Part shown: in pieces, positions 740-7,349 of the stretch
Layout of the letters: each line of letters starts with the position of its first letter
How positions within the stretch are numbered: position 1 is the stretch's first letter
Assembly: GCA_002377585.1 (NCBI GenBank)
Contig: DFQC01000051.1
Coordinates: forward strand, 7,211-71,210
Source: Anaerolineales bacterium UBA3499
GTDB taxonomy: Bacteria; Chloroflexota; Anaerolineae; Anaerolineales; UBA11657
DNA length: 64,000 nucleotides
Direction of reading: 5' to 3'
The notes under the pieces: generated by a model
The model's input: the letters and a program-made list of their open reading frames with translations, nothing else
The model's database searches: none
What the model was told of the DNA's origin: nothing
Position numbers and translations under genes: made by a program

Positions 740-1963
740 CTACTCGTACCGTAATGCTTCTATAGGACTGAGTCTAGCAGCACGACTCGCAGGGTATATG
801 CCAAAAAATATACCCACAAATGCCGCGAAACAGAAGGCCATCACAATTGTATTTGTTTCTATACTGGCCTGGACCAGATCTGCTGCACTTACCCCATAAG
901 CTATTCCCCAACCTACACCTATCCCTGTTATTCCGCCTATCAAACTGAGTACTATAGTTTCAATCAAGAATTGCAACATTATTGTACTGCGTCTTGCTCC
1001 TACTGCTTTTCGCAAACCTATCTCACGTGTACGTTCCGTTACAGAAACTAACATAATATTCATAATGCCAATTCCACCAACCAATAACGAAATCCCAGCA
1101 ATTGCTCCAAGAAACATAGTAAGAGTAGCAGTGATCTGATCAAATGCTTCTAAGAAAGCATTCTGACTAAATACCGAAAAATCTAAATCATCTTGCAATT
1201 TCAAACCATGTTGCTGTCGCATAATACGTTCAATTTGCACCATGACCCATTCGACGTCCTCTGCTGTAGATGCTGACATGGAAACAGAACTAACTGTTCG
1301 TACGCCATTACTAATGGCACGGTTGCCAAATAAACGAGTGTATCCAGTTTCCATAGGAATCAATGCAACATCATCTTCACTACCAAATCCGCCACCCCCC
1401 TTACTTTCAAGCACACCAATCACTTCAAAGAATATACTGTCAATTCGAATTGTCCTGCCCATTGGATTTAATCCAGCAAACAGTTCTGTAGCGGTCTCTG
1501 ATCCTAAGACAACTACTCTGGCCCGACCTGCATTGTCAGGATATGACAAAAAGCGTCCCTGAGACAATTCCATAGAACGCACTTGCTGATATTCTGGCAA
1601 AGTACCCTTAACTTCTACATCAACAGTGTTTCCACCATAAGTAATCTGTAACATCCTACTTACCGTAGGCGCCATTACTCTCACCTTCTCCAGATTATCA
1701 GACAATTTATTGTAATCATCATAAGTCAACTTTGCCTGAATACGTTGTCCACCCCGTTCCCATGTTCCAGGAAATACTTGAATGTTATTAGATCCAATAC
1801 CTTCAATTTGATCCGTAATAGATGCAGTAGCTCCATTACCAATTGCCATTAGAGCAACTACAGCAGCAACACCAATTATTATCCCTAGCATAGTAAGCAC
1901 AGAACGAAGCTTGTTAACTGCAAGTGCACGCAACGCTACGCGAATATTTGCTAACAAATTCAT
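740..1963 (-). CDS. MacB/FtsX-family ABC transporter permease
   Basis: NKLRSVLTMLGIIIGVAAVV N-terminus, large extracytoplasmic domain, GGIGIMNIMLVSVTERTREIGLRKAVGA motif, PIEALRYE C-terminus. Confidence 0.95.
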   Translation of the reverse strand: MNLLANIRVALRALAVNKLRSVLTMLGIIIGVAAVVALMAIGNGATASITDQIEGIGSNNIQVFPGTWERGGQRIQAKLTYDDYNKLSDNLEKVRVMAPTVSRMLQITYGGNTVDVEVKGTLPEYQQVRSMELSQGRFLSYPDNAGRARVVVLGSETATELFAGLNPMGRTIRIDSIFFEVIGVLESKGGGGFGSEDDVALIPMETGYTRLFGNRAISNGVRTVSSVSMSASTAEDVEWVMVQIERIMRQQHGLKLQDDLDFSVFSQNAFLEAFDQITATLTMFLGAIAGISLLVGGIGIMNIMLVSVTERTREIGLRKAVGARRSTIMLQFLIETIVLSLIGGITGIGVGWGIAYGVSAADLVQASIETNTIVMAFCFAAFVGIFFGIYPASRAARLSPIEALRYE

Positions 1964-2680: not shown

Positions 2681-4903
2681 CTAATCCCGACCCCCAAATG
2701 GGCTACCACTATCAGTCGGCTTTGGAGTGAAAATCACTACTTGCTGACCAGGCTGCAAATCACCCCTTACAATCACTTGATCGCCTTGAATCATTCCACT
2801 TTCTATAGTTACGCGATTCTGCTCATTAGAAGTAGTATCAAACAGCATCACATATTCACCTTCATCATCATATTGAACGGAATCAATGGGTACAGCCAAT
2901 TCCTCCTCTAAAACCTCTGTTACAATTTTCACGTATGAGGTCATACCCAACATAACACCTTCCGACTGATTCCTAAGTGTGACAGTAACAGGGTAGCGTA
3001 CCAATCCCTGAACAGTTTCGCCAAATGGTGCAATATTAGTCACTAGCGCACGAACTTCCGTATATGACATAGCATCAAATGTAACAATCGCTGGTTGGCC
3101 TATTTCAATGCCGTTAACCTCAGTCTCATCAACTGATACTTCGACTAACAACTTGTCGGTATTTGCCAACCTTACAGCAGGAGTGGATTGATCTGTTGAA
3201 TCTCCAGTAAGATAGTTGAGTTCGACAACTTTGCCACTAAAAGGCGCTTCCAACCACAGAGAACTCAAGGTAGCTTGAGCAGCTGTGACCTTAGCCTCAG
3301 CTACTGCAATATCATCTTCGTCTGGACCTGCCACCAACTCCTGTAGCTTCTCTTCTGCATCAGTAAGTTTAGATCTTGCTAAGTCAATGTCAGTAGACCG
3401 AGGATTAAGCAATATTTCCAAATCATCTTCAGCATCTAATAGATTACCCTTTGCAACAGCCAAATCTTCGGGCTGTGGGTCAAGTAAATTGGATAAATCC
3501 TCTTCCGATTCGGACAATTCACCAGCAGCATCTTGCACATCTGCCTCCATTAGAGCTTGATCAATTAGATCCACTCCAGCCAATGCATCATCCAAATCTT
3601 CTTGTGCATCGCGCACTTTCTTAGTAGCCAGATCCAGAGCAGTCGTATTGCTCATACGAGTTTGCTCCACCTGTAATTCTGCTTCTCTTACTCTTTCTTT
3701 AGCAGCAGATACGTCCTCTTTAGCTTCTAACAATGTCCGTGTTACCCCATCAACCGAAACTGCCCGAGTAGTGTCGCAAATTCTAAACGATTGGTACTCA
3801 ACAATGTTCCCATGAATATCCTTAAGTACGTTGCCTGTCTCCTCAAACACCTGGTAAACCGGGCCCACCATATAGGTGTAACCTTTGTATACAAGCTCTT
3901 CAGTCACAGTAAGCTGGATATATTCTTTGTCAGCATCTTCTTCAACCTTGTGCACTACACAACCATCTATTGCTTTTTGGACACTAACCTGTCTTTCTTT
4001 CATATCGTCCAATGTATCAAGAGCATTCTGAAGAGCACTAGTGGCTGTACCAATATCTGCAAGTTCGACATCTTGCTCAGCACGAGCTAAATCAAATTCA
4101 GCATCCCTTAAAGCATCTTTAAGAGCATCAATATCAGGATTTAGCAGATCGTCCAATGCTTCCTGTTGATCTCTAAGTGCATCTTTCCTTGCCGCAACCT
4201 CCTGCTCTGCGGCCGCAATCTGTGCAGTACTAGGATTCTTGAGTTCATTGAAGGCATCTCTGGCATCGACTACTGCTTGCTTGGCTTGTGCCACACTAGA
4301 TGTGGTCGGATTCTGCATATTTTCCAGTTCTTCCCGTGCGTCTGCAACAGATTTTTGTGCGTTACTAATTTGTAAATCAGTTGGATTAAGTAATTCATCT
4401 AAATCTTTGCGTGCTGATATCAAGTCAGCCTGTGCCATAATCACATTTTGTGGGGCACTCAATGGATCAAGTTCCATTAAAACATCACCCTTACTCACAT
4501 CGTCACCCACTTCCACCTTGACTTTGGCAACAATACCACTAGTTTCCCAATATATCTCTCCGGATTGTGAAGCTATAAGTGTGCCTGAAGCATCAATAAT
4601 ACGCTCTGCATCTAACAAAACCACTTCACCGGTTTCTACCAATTCCTCTTCACTTGAACCGCCCCGGAATAAACGCTGTACAAAACCAAATGGGCCTCGT
4701 CCACGCCCTCCTGCACCTCTCCCACCCGAACCTCTATTAAACTCCCTAGAAGATTCAGAGATTTGCTGATTTGATGCCTGCTGCATAGGAAGAACTATAC
4801 GAGCCAAACCATATAGAACAATACCCATAATCACTATTATGCCAAGTACTACTACCCAACGAGGAACTACACGTGTCTTTTGATTATTATTACCCGTATT
4901 CAT
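2681..4903 (-). CDS. HlyD/MacA-family periplasmic adaptor (membrane fusion protein) with very long helical hairpin
   Basis: N-terminal TM helix; lipoyl half-motifs SGIVAKVKVEVGDDVSKGDVL and LEAPFSGKV; beta-barrel VDETEVNGIEIGQPA; about 400 aa helical region between them; GGTGG SD-like motif upstream. Confidence 0.9.
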   Translation of the reverse strand: MNTGNNNQKTRVVPRWVVVLGIIVIMGIVLYGLARIVLPMQQASNQQISESSREFNRGSGGRGAGGRGRGPFGFVQRLFRGGSSEEELVETGEVVLLDAERIIDASGTLIASQSGEIYWETSGIVAKVKVEVGDDVSKGDVLMELDPLSAPQNVIMAQADLISARKDLDELLNPTDLQISNAQKSVADAREELENMQNPTTSSVAQAKQAVVDARDAFNELKNPSTAQIAAAEQEVAARKDALRDQQEALDDLLNPDIDALKDALRDAEFDLARAEQDVELADIGTATSALQNALDTLDDMKERQVSVQKAIDGCVVHKVEEDADKEYIQLTVTEELVYKGYTYMVGPVYQVFEETGNVLKDIHGNIVEYQSFRICDTTRAVSVDGVTRTLLEAKEDVSAAKERVREAELQVEQTRMSNTTALDLATKKVRDAQEDLDDALAGVDLIDQALMEADVQDAAGELSESEEDLSNLLDPQPEDLAVAKGNLLDAEDDLEILLNPRSTDIDLARSKLTDAEEKLQELVAGPDEDDIAVAEAKVTAAQATLSSLWLEAPFSGKVVELNYLTGDSTDQSTPAVRLANTDKLLVEVSVDETEVNGIEIGQPAIVTFDAMSYTEVRALVTNIAPFGETVQGLVRYPVTVTLRNQSEGVMLGMTSYVKIVTEVLEEELAVPIDSVQYDDEGEYVMLFDTTSNEQNRVTIESGMIQGDQVIVRGDLQPGQQVVIFTPKPTDSGSPFGGRD

Positions 4904-5095: not shown

Positions 5096-5893
5096 CTATT
5101 CTTGCCTACTAAACAGCCATACTGCTGGCACCAAAAATAGCACAGAAAAAGAGGCCATCATCATCACATTATAAGTCAATGGATTTAAAGATATTGTGTG
5201 CATTAAATCTGGAGGCACTAGTGCTTGTAACGATACCTGTCTTAATGGGTCTACTCCATACGTAACAGGATCTAATTTTGACAGTAAGTACATCCAAATC
5301 GGTACACCACGAAGTGGAAAGAATGCACCTGAAAGAAAAAACATGGGTAGTAGCACGAAATTCATCATCATATGGAAGCCTTCCATTGATTTTTGCCTTG
5401 CTGCTATAAGAATACCTAAGGCAGTCATCATCACAGCAAGCATTACCATAAGGCCAATAAGACTCACTATTTGGGAGATTGATAACGTAACCCCCAAAAC
5501 TGGGGCCAATAACAAAACAATCAATCCTTGAAACAAGGACACAGTACTACCACCGGCTACCTTTCCAAGAGCGATAGCTACCCTAGAAACAGGAGCCACC
5601 ATAACCTCTTTAAGAAATCCAAATTCACGATCCCATACAATTGACACTGCTGAAAACACTGAAGTAAACAATACTGTCATTGTCAATACTCCAGGAAACA
5701 TGAATTGCTTGAAATCGATATTGCCGCCTCCCATCTCGGCCATAGCAGGTGACAAACCGCTACCAAACACAAAAAGATAGACTATTGGCATTCCAAGAGA
5801 CGAAAACATACGAACACGATCACGTTTGAAACGTACAATATCACGGTACCAGATAGTATAAGCACCTCTGACATTTCGTTTTAGAATTTCCAT
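5096..5893 (-). CDS. ABC-2 type permease, DrrB-like (ORF track start 5929; Met at 5893 more likely)
   Basis: SIVWDREFGFLKEVMVAPVSR and FFLSGAFFP motifs; about six hydrophobic segments. Confidence 0.92.
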   Translation of the reverse strand: MEILKRNVRGAYTIWYRDIVRFKRDRVRMFSSLGMPIVYLFVFGSGLSPAMAEMGGGNIDFKQFMFPGVLTMTVLFTSVFSAVSIVWDREFGFLKEVMVAPVSRVAIALGKVAGGSTVSLFQGLIVLLLAPVLGVTLSISQIVSLIGLMVMLAVMMTALGILIAARQKSMEGFHMMMNFVLLPMFFLSGAFFPLRGVPIWMYLLSKLDPVTYGVDPLRQVSLQALVPPDLMHTISLNPLTYNVMMMASFSVLFLVPAVWLFSRQE

Positions 5894-5913
5894 AATATTA
5901 TTTCTTGTTTTAT

Positions 5914-6909
5914 CTAACGCCCTCGCCACCTTCTCATACCACTGCGAACTTTATCCTTATCCACAGCATTTTGGTCGCGCATGGCATGACCAGTAAGTTT
6001 GACAAAGACGTCTTCGAGAGTAGGACGCCGCAAGTATACACTTTTTACAGATATATTTTCTTGTGTCATGTCAGTTAATACAGACATCATTTCGGGGATA
6101 AATTGATCCCCTCGCTCTGTTTCTATTATAAGTTGATTGTCAGGTCCTATTCTAGTAGCAACACCATGTGAATTTTGCAATCTGAGAGACGCTTGCTCAT
6201 TATCATCGGTAACTGCCATAATAATATCACCACCAACCATAGCCTTTAGTGCTTCCGGAGTATCAAGACCAACAATTTTGCCATCATCTATAATGGCTAT
6301 ACGATCACAATGTTCCGCTTCTTCCATGTAGTGAGTTGTCATGAACATAGTTACACCCTGGCGCTCACGCAACGTTACCAGATAGTCCCAAATGTGTCGG
6401 CGTGTCTGTGGATCAAGACCCAATGTAGGTTCATCCAAGAACAATATTTTTGGGTTATGTAACAAGCCACGAGCTATTTCTAGACGACGCTTCATACCAC
6501 CAGAATAATTCAAGACTACTTCCTCAGCGCGACCAGTTAATTCAACCATTTCCAGTAACTTAGCAGCTTTGTCTGAGAAATCATCTTTGGACAAACCGTA
6601 CAACATTCCATGAAACAAAAGATTCTCGCGTCCGGTTAGTTTGTCATCCAAGCTTGCATCCTGAAAAATCATCCCTATTGACTGTCGTACCAGTGCTTGC
6701 TGCTTACTAACATCATATCCATTCACTAACGCACTACCAGATGTTGGGTGCAGAAGAGTAGTTAACATATTTATTGTAGTAGTTTTACCAGCACCGTTAG
6801 GTCCTAGAAAACCAAATATTTCCCCTGATTCTACTTTAAAGCTAACATCATCTACAGCAACATTTTTGCCAAAGTGACGTACAAGTTGTTCTACTTTTAT
6901 AGAATACAT
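5914..6909 (-). CDS. ABC ATP-binding protein, DrrA-like
   Basis: GPNGAGKTT, YSGGMKRRLEIARGL, LFLDEPTLGLDPQTR, TTHYMEEAE, C-terminal PTLEDVF. Confidence 0.93.
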   Translation of the reverse strand: MYSIKVEQLVRHFGKNVAVDDVSFKVESGEIFGFLGPNGAGKTTTINMLTTLLHPTSGSALVNGYDVSKQQALVRQSIGMIFQDASLDDKLTGRENLLFHGMLYGLSKDDFSDKAAKLLEMVELTGRAEEVVLNYSGGMKRRLEIARGLLHNPKILFLDEPTLGLDPQTRRHIWDYLVTLRERQGVTMFMTTHYMEEAEHCDRIAIIDDGKIVGLDTPEALKAMVGGDIIMAVTDDNEQASLRLQNSHGVATRIGPDNQLIIETERGDQFIPEMMSVLTDMTQENISVKSVYLRRPTLEDVFVKLTGHAMRDQNAVDKDKVRSGMRRWRGR

Positions 6910-6920
6910 TTAATATGGTC

Positions 6921-7349
6921 CTAGGTGACAGATTTGAGTAGTATTACTGGAATTTGTCGCTCTGTCCGTTCTTTGTATCGCTTCAACCAAGGAAATTGTA
7001 ACCCAAGTCGATTGCTCTCACTTCCTTGTGTGAGAATAGCTGACACATCAATAGTCCTGTCGCCGACTTCAATTCTGGCTCCCGGATCGCTTACAATATT
7101 CAAAAACCATGCAGGATGTCTGTCTCTACCACCATTTGAGGCGACTACAGCATAATTGTCTCCATCTTCTACCGCCCCTAAAGGTACAGTATGCAGTCGA
7201 CCCGTTTTTCTGCCAGTAGTAGTTAGTAGAACAACAGGTCTTCCCTGCACTGAACCCAGAAGACGTCCTTTAGAGTAACGATACACAAATATGTGAATCC
7301 TCATCAGTATTCGAATAATTGGCCTACTCAACAGTATTCTAGTCAACAT
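6921..7349 (-). CDS. Deazaflavin (F420H2)-dependent nitroreductase family protein (Ddn-like)
   Basis: LLTTTGRKTG, VVASNGG, HPAWFLNI, RQIPVILL motifs. Confidence 0.88.
   Translation of the reverse strand: MLTRILLSRPIIRILMRIHIFVYRYSKGRLLGSVQGRPVVLLTTTGRKTGRLHTVPLGAVEDGDNYAVVASNGGRDRHPAWFLNIVSDPGARIEVGDRTIDVSAILTQGSESNRLGLQFPWLKRYKERTERQIPVILLKSVT

Follow-up and report, generated by a model that had tools for sequence, protein, structure and literature searches.

A giant MacA-type adaptor with a predicted cysteine-bracketed domain at its hairpin tip in a MacAB-like pump of an Anaerolineales bacterium

MacAB-like pumps of monoderm bacteria are a known kind of exporter (PMC5768738, PMC4446572). 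In the closest described systems, Spr0693-Spr0694-Spr0695 of Streptococcus pneumoniae and YknX-YknYZ (YknXYZ) of Bacillus, an adaptor is combined with a separate ATP-binding cassette (ABC) ATPase and a MacB_PCD/FtsX permease, with no outer-membrane factor, and Spr0693 and YknX are described as MacA-like hexamers (PMC5768738, PMC8277102). Spr0693 (PDB 5XU0) consists of lipoyl, beta-barrel and membrane-proximal domains and an alpha-hairpin that ends in a short flexible turn, and its helical barrel is 56 Å high (PMC5768738). The role of the alpha-hairpins in such Gram-positive (monoderm) adaptors, which have no TolC to meet, was stated to be unexplained (PMC4446572, Symmons et al. 2015), and tip domains or cysteine staples are not mentioned in the available sections of four papers on adaptors (PMC4446572, PMC13328181, PMC8277102, PMC5768738). 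Here we describe a MacAB-like pump encoded in a stretch of 64,000 nucleotides from the marine Anaerolineales bacterium UBA3499 (contig DFQC01000051.1; hereafter the window), whose adaptor, P0001, has a much longer hairpin with a predicted folded module, bracketed by the only two cysteines of the protein, at the turn.

The genes of an ABC ATPase (P0002) and a MacB-type permease (P0003) lie downstream of the adaptor gene in the same orientation, and neighbouring reading frames overlap or nearly abut; the P0003 start and the P0002 stop overlap by 4 nt. E. coli MacB is the best NCBIfam match of both proteins, and together they form the adjacent MacB-type transporter that is expected of a MacA-type adaptor. 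The order adaptor-ATPase-permease is kept in relatives at 85% and 55% identity (loci L002 and L007), where no conserved extra gene was found around the operon, and it is also present at locus L034 beside P0080, a very different giant adaptor. A search of the 94%-complete genome returned neither OEP/TolC proteins (PF02321, 0 matches; controls respond) nor Omp85/BamA (diderm controls respond), which agrees with the view that Chloroflexota are without a classical outer membrane (PMC13319060, PMC7332563). Because of this double absence, P0001-P0003 are assigned to the monoderm type of MacAB-like pump, having an adaptor, a separate ATPase and a MacB_PCD/FtsX permease in one operon and no outer membrane. 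The earlier note on this DNA, made from its letters alone, had pointed out that the locus contains no TolC gene. This is true and by itself weak; the absence of OEP and Omp85 from a nearly complete genome is the stronger fact.

By Pfam, AlphaFold2 and Foldseek, P0001 has the layout of an adaptor, with a lipoyl domain split by an alpha-helical hairpin and followed by beta-barrel and membrane-proximal domains. Biotin_lipoyl_2 was matched at residues 121-146, and HlyD_D23 (score 58.7, cutoff 30) and HlyD_3 (55.5, cutoff 22.2) at residues 512-646; the HlyD_3 match, at 552-646, and Biotin_lipoyl_2 flank the helices at 152-313 and 391-549. The protein passes the NCBIfam model TIGR01730 (RND_mfp, periplasmic adaptor subunit) with 119.9 bits against a cutoff of 94.9, and falls far below the MacA equivalog NF008606 (38.5 bits, cutoff 342). 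In the Foldseek comparison the best structural match of the model is MacA in MacAB-TolC (9qgy_G/5nik_D, TMt 0.65), and Spr0693 is matched as well (5xu0_B, E = 1.5e-10). The best match among PDB sequences is Aquifex aeolicus EmrA (PDB 4TKO, 5.4e-10), and the PDB sequence match extends to MacA residue 367.

Comparison with these proteins shows what is distinctive in the window. E. coli MacA (PDB 5NIK, 9QGY, 3FPP) arranges its four domains in the same order and likewise has a MacB-type partner, but the hairpin of P0001 is several times longer and carries an extra tip domain. P0001 also shares the domains of Spr0693, whereas its hairpin is approximately four times longer, with arms of ∼160 residues each (∼240 Å if straight) in five mirrored segments, and a predicted folded module of 77 amino acids with a cysteine pair replaces the short turn. 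EmrA resembles P0001 in its hairpin, which is unusually long, at 127 Å (PMC4158417). Unlike P0001, EmrA has no membrane-proximal domain, works with a major facilitator superfamily pump and TolC, and ends in a simple R-L-S tip that carries neither an inserted domain nor a cysteine pair. The motif R-x3-L-x6-S at the hairpin tip is the TolC contact motif (PMC3391258); a pattern search found it nowhere in P0001, where the turn is occupied by the 77-residue module.

The structure of P0001 was predicted by AlphaFold2 from an alignment of 63 sequences, with a mean predicted local distance difference test (pLDDT) score of 82; the single-sequence prediction was uninformative (mean pLDDT 45). In this model the first beta strands begin at residue 90, before the hairpin, and the remaining beta domains follow residue 549. 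The ascending arm consists of helices 152-172, 176-197, 201-222, 226-254, 258-281 and 284-313, with prolines at 174, 199, 224 and 256, and the descending arm of helices 391-442, 446-474, 478-499, 503-525 and 529-549. The arms are broken at N-P-T/S, D-P-Q-P or G-P, and the lengths of their segments are mirrored: 21/22/22/29/56 residues on the way up and 52/29/22/23/21 on the way down from the tip. Such a pattern would be expected of an antiparallel hairpin whose joints lie at matching heights, and it would therefore place the tip module at the topological midpoint of the hairpin. We also considered that the arms might form a zig-zag helical-bundle fold rather than one long hairpin; the mirrored segment lengths speak against it. 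Each arm has ∼160 amino acids, and 162 residues at 1.5 Å per residue would span ∼24 nm if the helices are coaxial.

The arms (window positions 3257-4450) contain 25-residue L-L-N/D-P repeats whose copy number varies among homologs, including P0026, P0029 and P0054, and the two arms of a protein do not always have equal numbers of them. The ascending and descending arms, which measure 168 and 177 residues in P0001, have 193/202, 218/177, 193/177 and 218/152 residues in homologs.

P0001 has exactly two cysteines, C315 (3959-3961) and C376 (3776-3778), as the earlier note had reported with exact coordinates, and the string that it quoted, YIQLTVTEELVYKGYTYMVGPVYQVF, is present in the protein. The stretch between them had been described as aromatic and beta-like, and both the composition and the model agree with this description. 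Aromatic residues make up 8 of the 60 inter-cysteine positions against 23 of the other 678 (Fisher p = 0.002) and only 2 of 321 arm positions, and the beta-forming residues V, I, Y, F, W and T account for 43% of the stretch against 15% of the arms. AlphaFold2 places strands at 317-319, 328-333, 337-339, 342-344, 349-353, 368-371, 382-384 and 387-389 and a helix at 354-364, with pLDDT values of 72 to 87 in blocks of ten residues. Thus, residues 314-390 are predicted to form a folded, beta-rich module at the tip, flanked by arms at 152-313 and 391-549, in line with the proposed position at the midpoint of the hairpin. The cysteine-bracketed core of the original description stands, while its extent has to be revised, since the folded tip continues past the second cysteine to residue 390. 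This last part holds a strongly conserved beta-hairpin, A-V-S-V-D-G-V-T-R (R380, V384-D385-G386-V387).

The module could not be assigned to a described family. A Pfam search with residues 303-392 gave no family at E ≤ 0.1, and no PDB sequence matched the tip profile at an E-value lower than 0.9. An FN3/Ig identity is not borne out either: no Pfam match reaches E ≤ 0.1, and the module has ∼77 residues and includes the helix 354-364, whereas such domains are all-beta sandwiches of ∼90 residues. When the whole model was compared with viral structures by Foldseek, only coiled coils of the Rad50/SbcC/SMC kind were returned (TM-scores of 0.04-0.20), an analogy that assigns no fold to the tip.

Table 1. 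Positions of the pump genes, of the parts of the P0001 adaptor and of the second adaptor gene
Feature	Position (window unless stated)	Strand	Basis
Gene P0001, 740-aa membrane-anchored MacA-type periplasmic adaptor	2681..4903	-	Pfam, NCBIfam, Foldseek
N-terminal transmembrane anchor, residues 15-36	4796..4861	-	AlphaFold2 helix 15-36
Ascending arm, residues 152-313, six helices (predicted)	3965..4450	-	AlphaFold2; breaks N-P-T/S and D-I-G
Tip module, residues 314-390, eight short strands and one helix (predicted)	3734..3964	-	AlphaFold2, conservation, dN/dS
Stretch C315-C376	3776..3961	-	Only two cysteines of P0001; conserved pair
Descending arm, residues 391-549, five helices (predicted)	3257..3733	-	AlphaFold2; breaks mirror ascending arm
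ABC ATPase P0002	1960..2709	-	Pfam ABC_tran 1.4e-33; best NCBIfam match is the nucleotide-binding part of MacB
MacB-type permease P0003, periplasmic core and FtsX domain	740..1963	-	Pfam MacB_PCD 1.1e-46, FtsX 1.2e-20; best NCBIfam match MacB
Second adaptor P0108, 628 aa	G000 contig 46, 82501-84387 (L010:6502-8388)	+	Same genome as window

Full-length homologs of P0001 (∼55 proteins at 55-99% identity, all from metagenome bins of marine Anaerolineales) keep the two cysteines without exception, 61-64 residues apart, and almost none has another cysteine. In the homolog alignment C376 does not vary and the conservation of C315 reaches at least 90%; the conserved tip columns are C315, G347, Y350, V352, C376, R380 and V384-V387. 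The ratio of nonsynonymous to synonymous substitution rates (dN/dS) is 0.06-0.16 in the tip and 0.03-0.14 elsewhere in the adaptor, and judged by these values the tip is under purifying selection, as the other domains are. The outcomes that would have spoken against the earlier proposal, namely a segment predicted as helix or disorder, a cysteine pair that is not conserved, or a module located away from the tip, were each looked for and not found; the pair is kept in all homologs that have the module.

The cysteine pair extends well beyond these homologs. By defining the hairpin region as everything between the two lipoyl halves, mapped for each match, we compared ∼100 relatives. Hairpin regions shorter than 230 residues contain no cysteine, while most of those with at least 233 residues have exactly two, which in nearly all cases lie at a relative position of 0.4-0.6 along the region (extremes 0.37-0.65, with P0099 as the single outlier at 0.27/0.72). 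A single cysteine at the tip was never found among these relatives. The two cysteines are thus conserved together, both in the homologs with the module and in ∼13 lineages of long-hairpin adaptors, in which they are 2 to 143 residues apart.

The alignment of the tips reveals a shared frame, (K/Q)-K-A-I-D-G-C, a variable insert of 2 to 63 amino acids and C-D-x-x-R-x-V-x-V-D-G, after which the descending helix begins. In P0075 these flanks surround two cysteines separated by Pro-Thr alone (C-P-T-C), P0063 has C-P-D-C at the tip, P0061 and P0062 have 11 residues between the cysteines, and P0060, P0101, P0102 and P0107 have a shorter tip module of 44-47 residues as compared with 60 in P0001. Since P0075 has the shared flanks around a bare C-P-T-C, and since short loops occur in more lineages, and more diverse ones, than the module does, the simplest reading of the sequences would be that the cysteine-closed tip loop came first and that the beta-rich module was later inserted into it.

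Two further tip forms were observed. C-P-T-C in P0075 and C-P-D-C in P0063 represent the minimal form, located at the apex of a long antiparallel coiled coil. P0080 (L034:5001-7682, 893 amino acids, on a 4.08-Mb contig) belongs to a different family of giant MacA-type adaptors with a hairpin region of ∼580 residues, and its tip consists of a non-helical domain of ∼100 residues rich in Trp, Phe and Tyr followed by Cys-x10-Cys; therefore, unrelated tip domains occupy the same hairpin site.

The taxonomic distribution of the module is narrow. The tip profile matched 8 clusters among 1.84 billion representative proteins, 7 of which are HlyD-type adaptors with the module in the middle of the hairpin. 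Thus, the profile search with the tip alone that had been suggested as a check recovers approximately seven adaptor clusters and no sequence match in Pfam or the PDB. The eighth cluster, P0105, is a Thr/Asn-rich repeat protein of 1832 amino acids with eight weakly matching stretches and no Pfam domain, and it was judged to reflect composition and not homology. A word-indexed homolog search with residues 300-400 gave only the close relatives already known. In a sample of 401 genomes of the phylum only the genome of the window was matched, and in a sample of 301 genomes of the order 18 were matched, including all 13 sampled genomes of the window's own Anaerolineales family, with one to three copies each; two other families in the order sample gave weak matches. 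The module is thus mainly restricted to one Anaerolineales family.

The genome of the window encodes four MacB_PCD permeases and only two adaptors. The second adaptor, P0108, carries a lipoprotein-type signal, lacks the membrane-proximal domain and has no transporter gene next to it. Its overall identity to P0001 is 27%, and the module and the cysteine pair are kept; apart from the signal-peptide cysteine, the pair bracketing the tip module comprises its only cysteines. An aldehyde dehydrogenase gene lies 12 nt downstream of the P0108 gene.

In P0001, K9, R11 and R15 lie ahead of the N-terminal transmembrane anchor, and a Gly/Arg-rich linker (approximately residues 40-88) comes after it; residues 37-87 have AlphaFold2 pLDDT values below 50, as in a disordered linker. 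By the positive-inside rule, the N-terminus would be inside and the bulk of the protein outside the membrane. The genome encodes a VKOR homolog (84.3 bits) and two Thioredoxin_4/DsbA-like proteins (105 and 100 bits). Since the bulk of the adaptor is probably extracytoplasmic and these oxidizing enzymes are encoded, a C315-C376 disulfide is plausible. As to the envelope, a search of the genome for SLH-domain proteins, which act as S-layer anchors, found none. Other Chloroflexota are described as having multilayered envelopes, in which a shared outer layer and a layer of protein occur (PMC7332563, PMC13319060). The Chloroflexota papers on cryo-electron tomography gave no usable distance between membrane and outer layer, so the comparison of tube length with envelope thickness stays qualitative.

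Taken together, these observations favor, with a probability of roughly 55%, the reading that P0001 is the adaptor of a three-gene MacAB-like exporter, in which the hairpins build a lengthened hexameric tube and tip modules locked by intramolecular disulfides form its far rim. By homology with MacA, Spr0693 and YknX, the adaptor would assemble into a hexameric tube that stands on the permease dimer, and ATP-driven movements of the extracytoplasmic domains of the permease would push the substrate into it, as in MacAB and Spr0693-0695. The tube would be greatly lengthened and, if straight as we infer, would cross the wall layers. Its hairpin turns would correspond to the cysteine-closed loop common in long-hairpin adaptors, with the beta-rich module of ∼60 residues inserted in this lineage. 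C315 and C376 would most likely be joined within each chain by a disulfide at the module's base, which the VKOR/DsbA-like system would introduce outside the cell, and this bond would keep the two long helices in register and the ends of the module together. Six modules would then make up the far rim of the tube, located inside or beyond the wall layers, where the rim may brace the open end and probably contacts an envelope component.

Several points weigh against this reading. Four hairpin regions of at least 233 residues (P0076, P0077, P0074 and P0087) have no cysteines, and therefore the cysteine staple is not obligatory in long hairpins. When the same pairs of homologs are compared, the tip reaches 51-55% identity and the rest of the protein 57-73%, so that conservation is slightly lower in the tip. 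The predicted template modelling score (pTM) of the whole model is only 0.37, and the alignment behind the tip prediction is shallow and comes mostly from one family at 55-99% identity. The unequal arms of some homologs (218/177 and 193/177) do not sit well with a hairpin that is strictly paired, unless the assembly collapsed some repeats; the extra arm units are near-identical tandem repeats, and such a collapse may have occurred. Finally, the source organism is uncultured.

It can also be speculated that the tip does more than brace the rim and is a specific docking surface for a lineage-specific component of the outer layer, such as a proteinaceous layer, a sheath or a pore. The module would then do for this component what the R-L-S hairpin tip does for TolC, so that the pump forms a continuous conduit across a multilayered envelope without an outer membrane. 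This would fit the sharing of the tip by P0001 and P0108, which differ in anchor (a transmembrane segment against a lipoprotein-type signal), membrane-proximal domain and arms, and which resemble in this respect the different adaptors that share one TolC-binding tip. The presence of the module in every sampled genome of its own family, with weak matches elsewhere, fits co-evolution with a lineage-specific part of the envelope; the multilayered envelopes of other Chloroflexota (PMC7332563, PMC13319060) could offer such a part, and since relatives have a plain cysteine loop the module would add something beyond stapling. What makes docking unlikely in our view is that no candidate partner emerged, the genome having no SLH-domain protein, OEP or Omp85 and the operon no conserved extra gene, and that the tip evolves slightly faster than the rest of the adaptor. 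Its boldest form, to which we would likewise give little weight, is a docking head of a trans-envelope conduit: six disulfide-locked modules on a tube of ∼24 nm would plug into a lineage-specific proteinaceous outer layer or pore, a partner common to all adaptors of the cell, as an independently evolved analogue of TolC docking. If true, the cysteine-closed turn of monoderm adaptors would be a general insertion site, on which lineages mount different envelope-contact domains.

Two other roles of the tip appear very improbable. The cysteines might act between subunits, with C315 of one chain bonded to C376 of the next, or through a metal bridge, which would turn the far end into a closed ring. 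In the zinc hook of Rad50 a CxxC motif lies at the apex of a coiled coil; C-P-T-C in P0075 and C-P-D-C in P0063 occupy an apex of this type, the comparison with viral models returned coiled coils of the Rad50/SbcC/SMC type, and a closed ring would require two cysteines per chain, as are present here. The low scores of that comparison, however, make the likeness to Rad50 an analogy and not a homology. In addition, the spacing of the cysteines varies from 2 to 143 residues between fixed flanks, for which a loop closed within one chain is the simplest explanation, and thiol-based metal sites are uncommon outside the cytoplasm. The six tip modules might, alternatively, be a plug that closes the distal end of the tube and opens only during transport, thereby replacing the TolC gating of diderms. 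The model puts the module at the exit end of the presumed channel, and in a monoderm an open tube of 24 nm would, without a plug, leave a permanent opening above the permease; in known adaptors it is loops of the lipoyl domain that gate (PMC5768738). Relatives with 2-11 residues between the cysteines, however, cannot form a plug, yet keep the same operon. The intramolecular lock at the rim of a lengthened tube thus remains the reading that we prefer.

Some features of the pump genes and their neighbourhood were noted in addition. The longest open reading frame of P0002 begins at a GTG and overlaps the end of the adaptor gene by 29 nt; because its orthologs have 232 and 238 amino acids, translation probably begins at the ATG at 2658 (residue M18), giving a protein of 232 amino acids. 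The C-terminal tail of P0001, T-x-S-G-S-P-F-G-G (residues 730-740, window positions 2681-2715), is kept even at 33-45% identity and echoes the G-P-F-G-F of the N-terminal Gly/Arg-rich linker (residues ∼52-78, window positions 4670-4750), and long Gly-rich tails are present at the C-termini of giant adaptors that are more distant. Upstream of the adaptor gene, on the same strand, are an unrelated ABC-2 type exporter pair, comprising a permease (5096-5929) and an ATPase with a DrrA-like C-terminal domain (5914-6909), and a gene of the F420H2-dependent quinone reductase family (6921-7349). The ABC-2 pair is kept in L002 and not in L007, and hence it is probably not part of the MacAB-like pump.

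With respect to the unexplained hairpins of monoderm adaptors, the findings indicate that the turn of the hairpin is no mere vestige in one lineage of Chloroflexota: it carries a predicted folded domain, under purifying selection, in a cysteine-closed loop. The same closed loop recurs in many long-hairpin adaptors, with an insert of 2-143 residues. The tip domain, the cysteine pair and the length of the tube provide a handle on how pumps cross thick or multilayered envelopes without an outer membrane. The single case is restricted to its lineage, yet it strengthens a wider and apparently undescribed rule on the hairpin tips of adaptors in bacteria that have no outer membrane.

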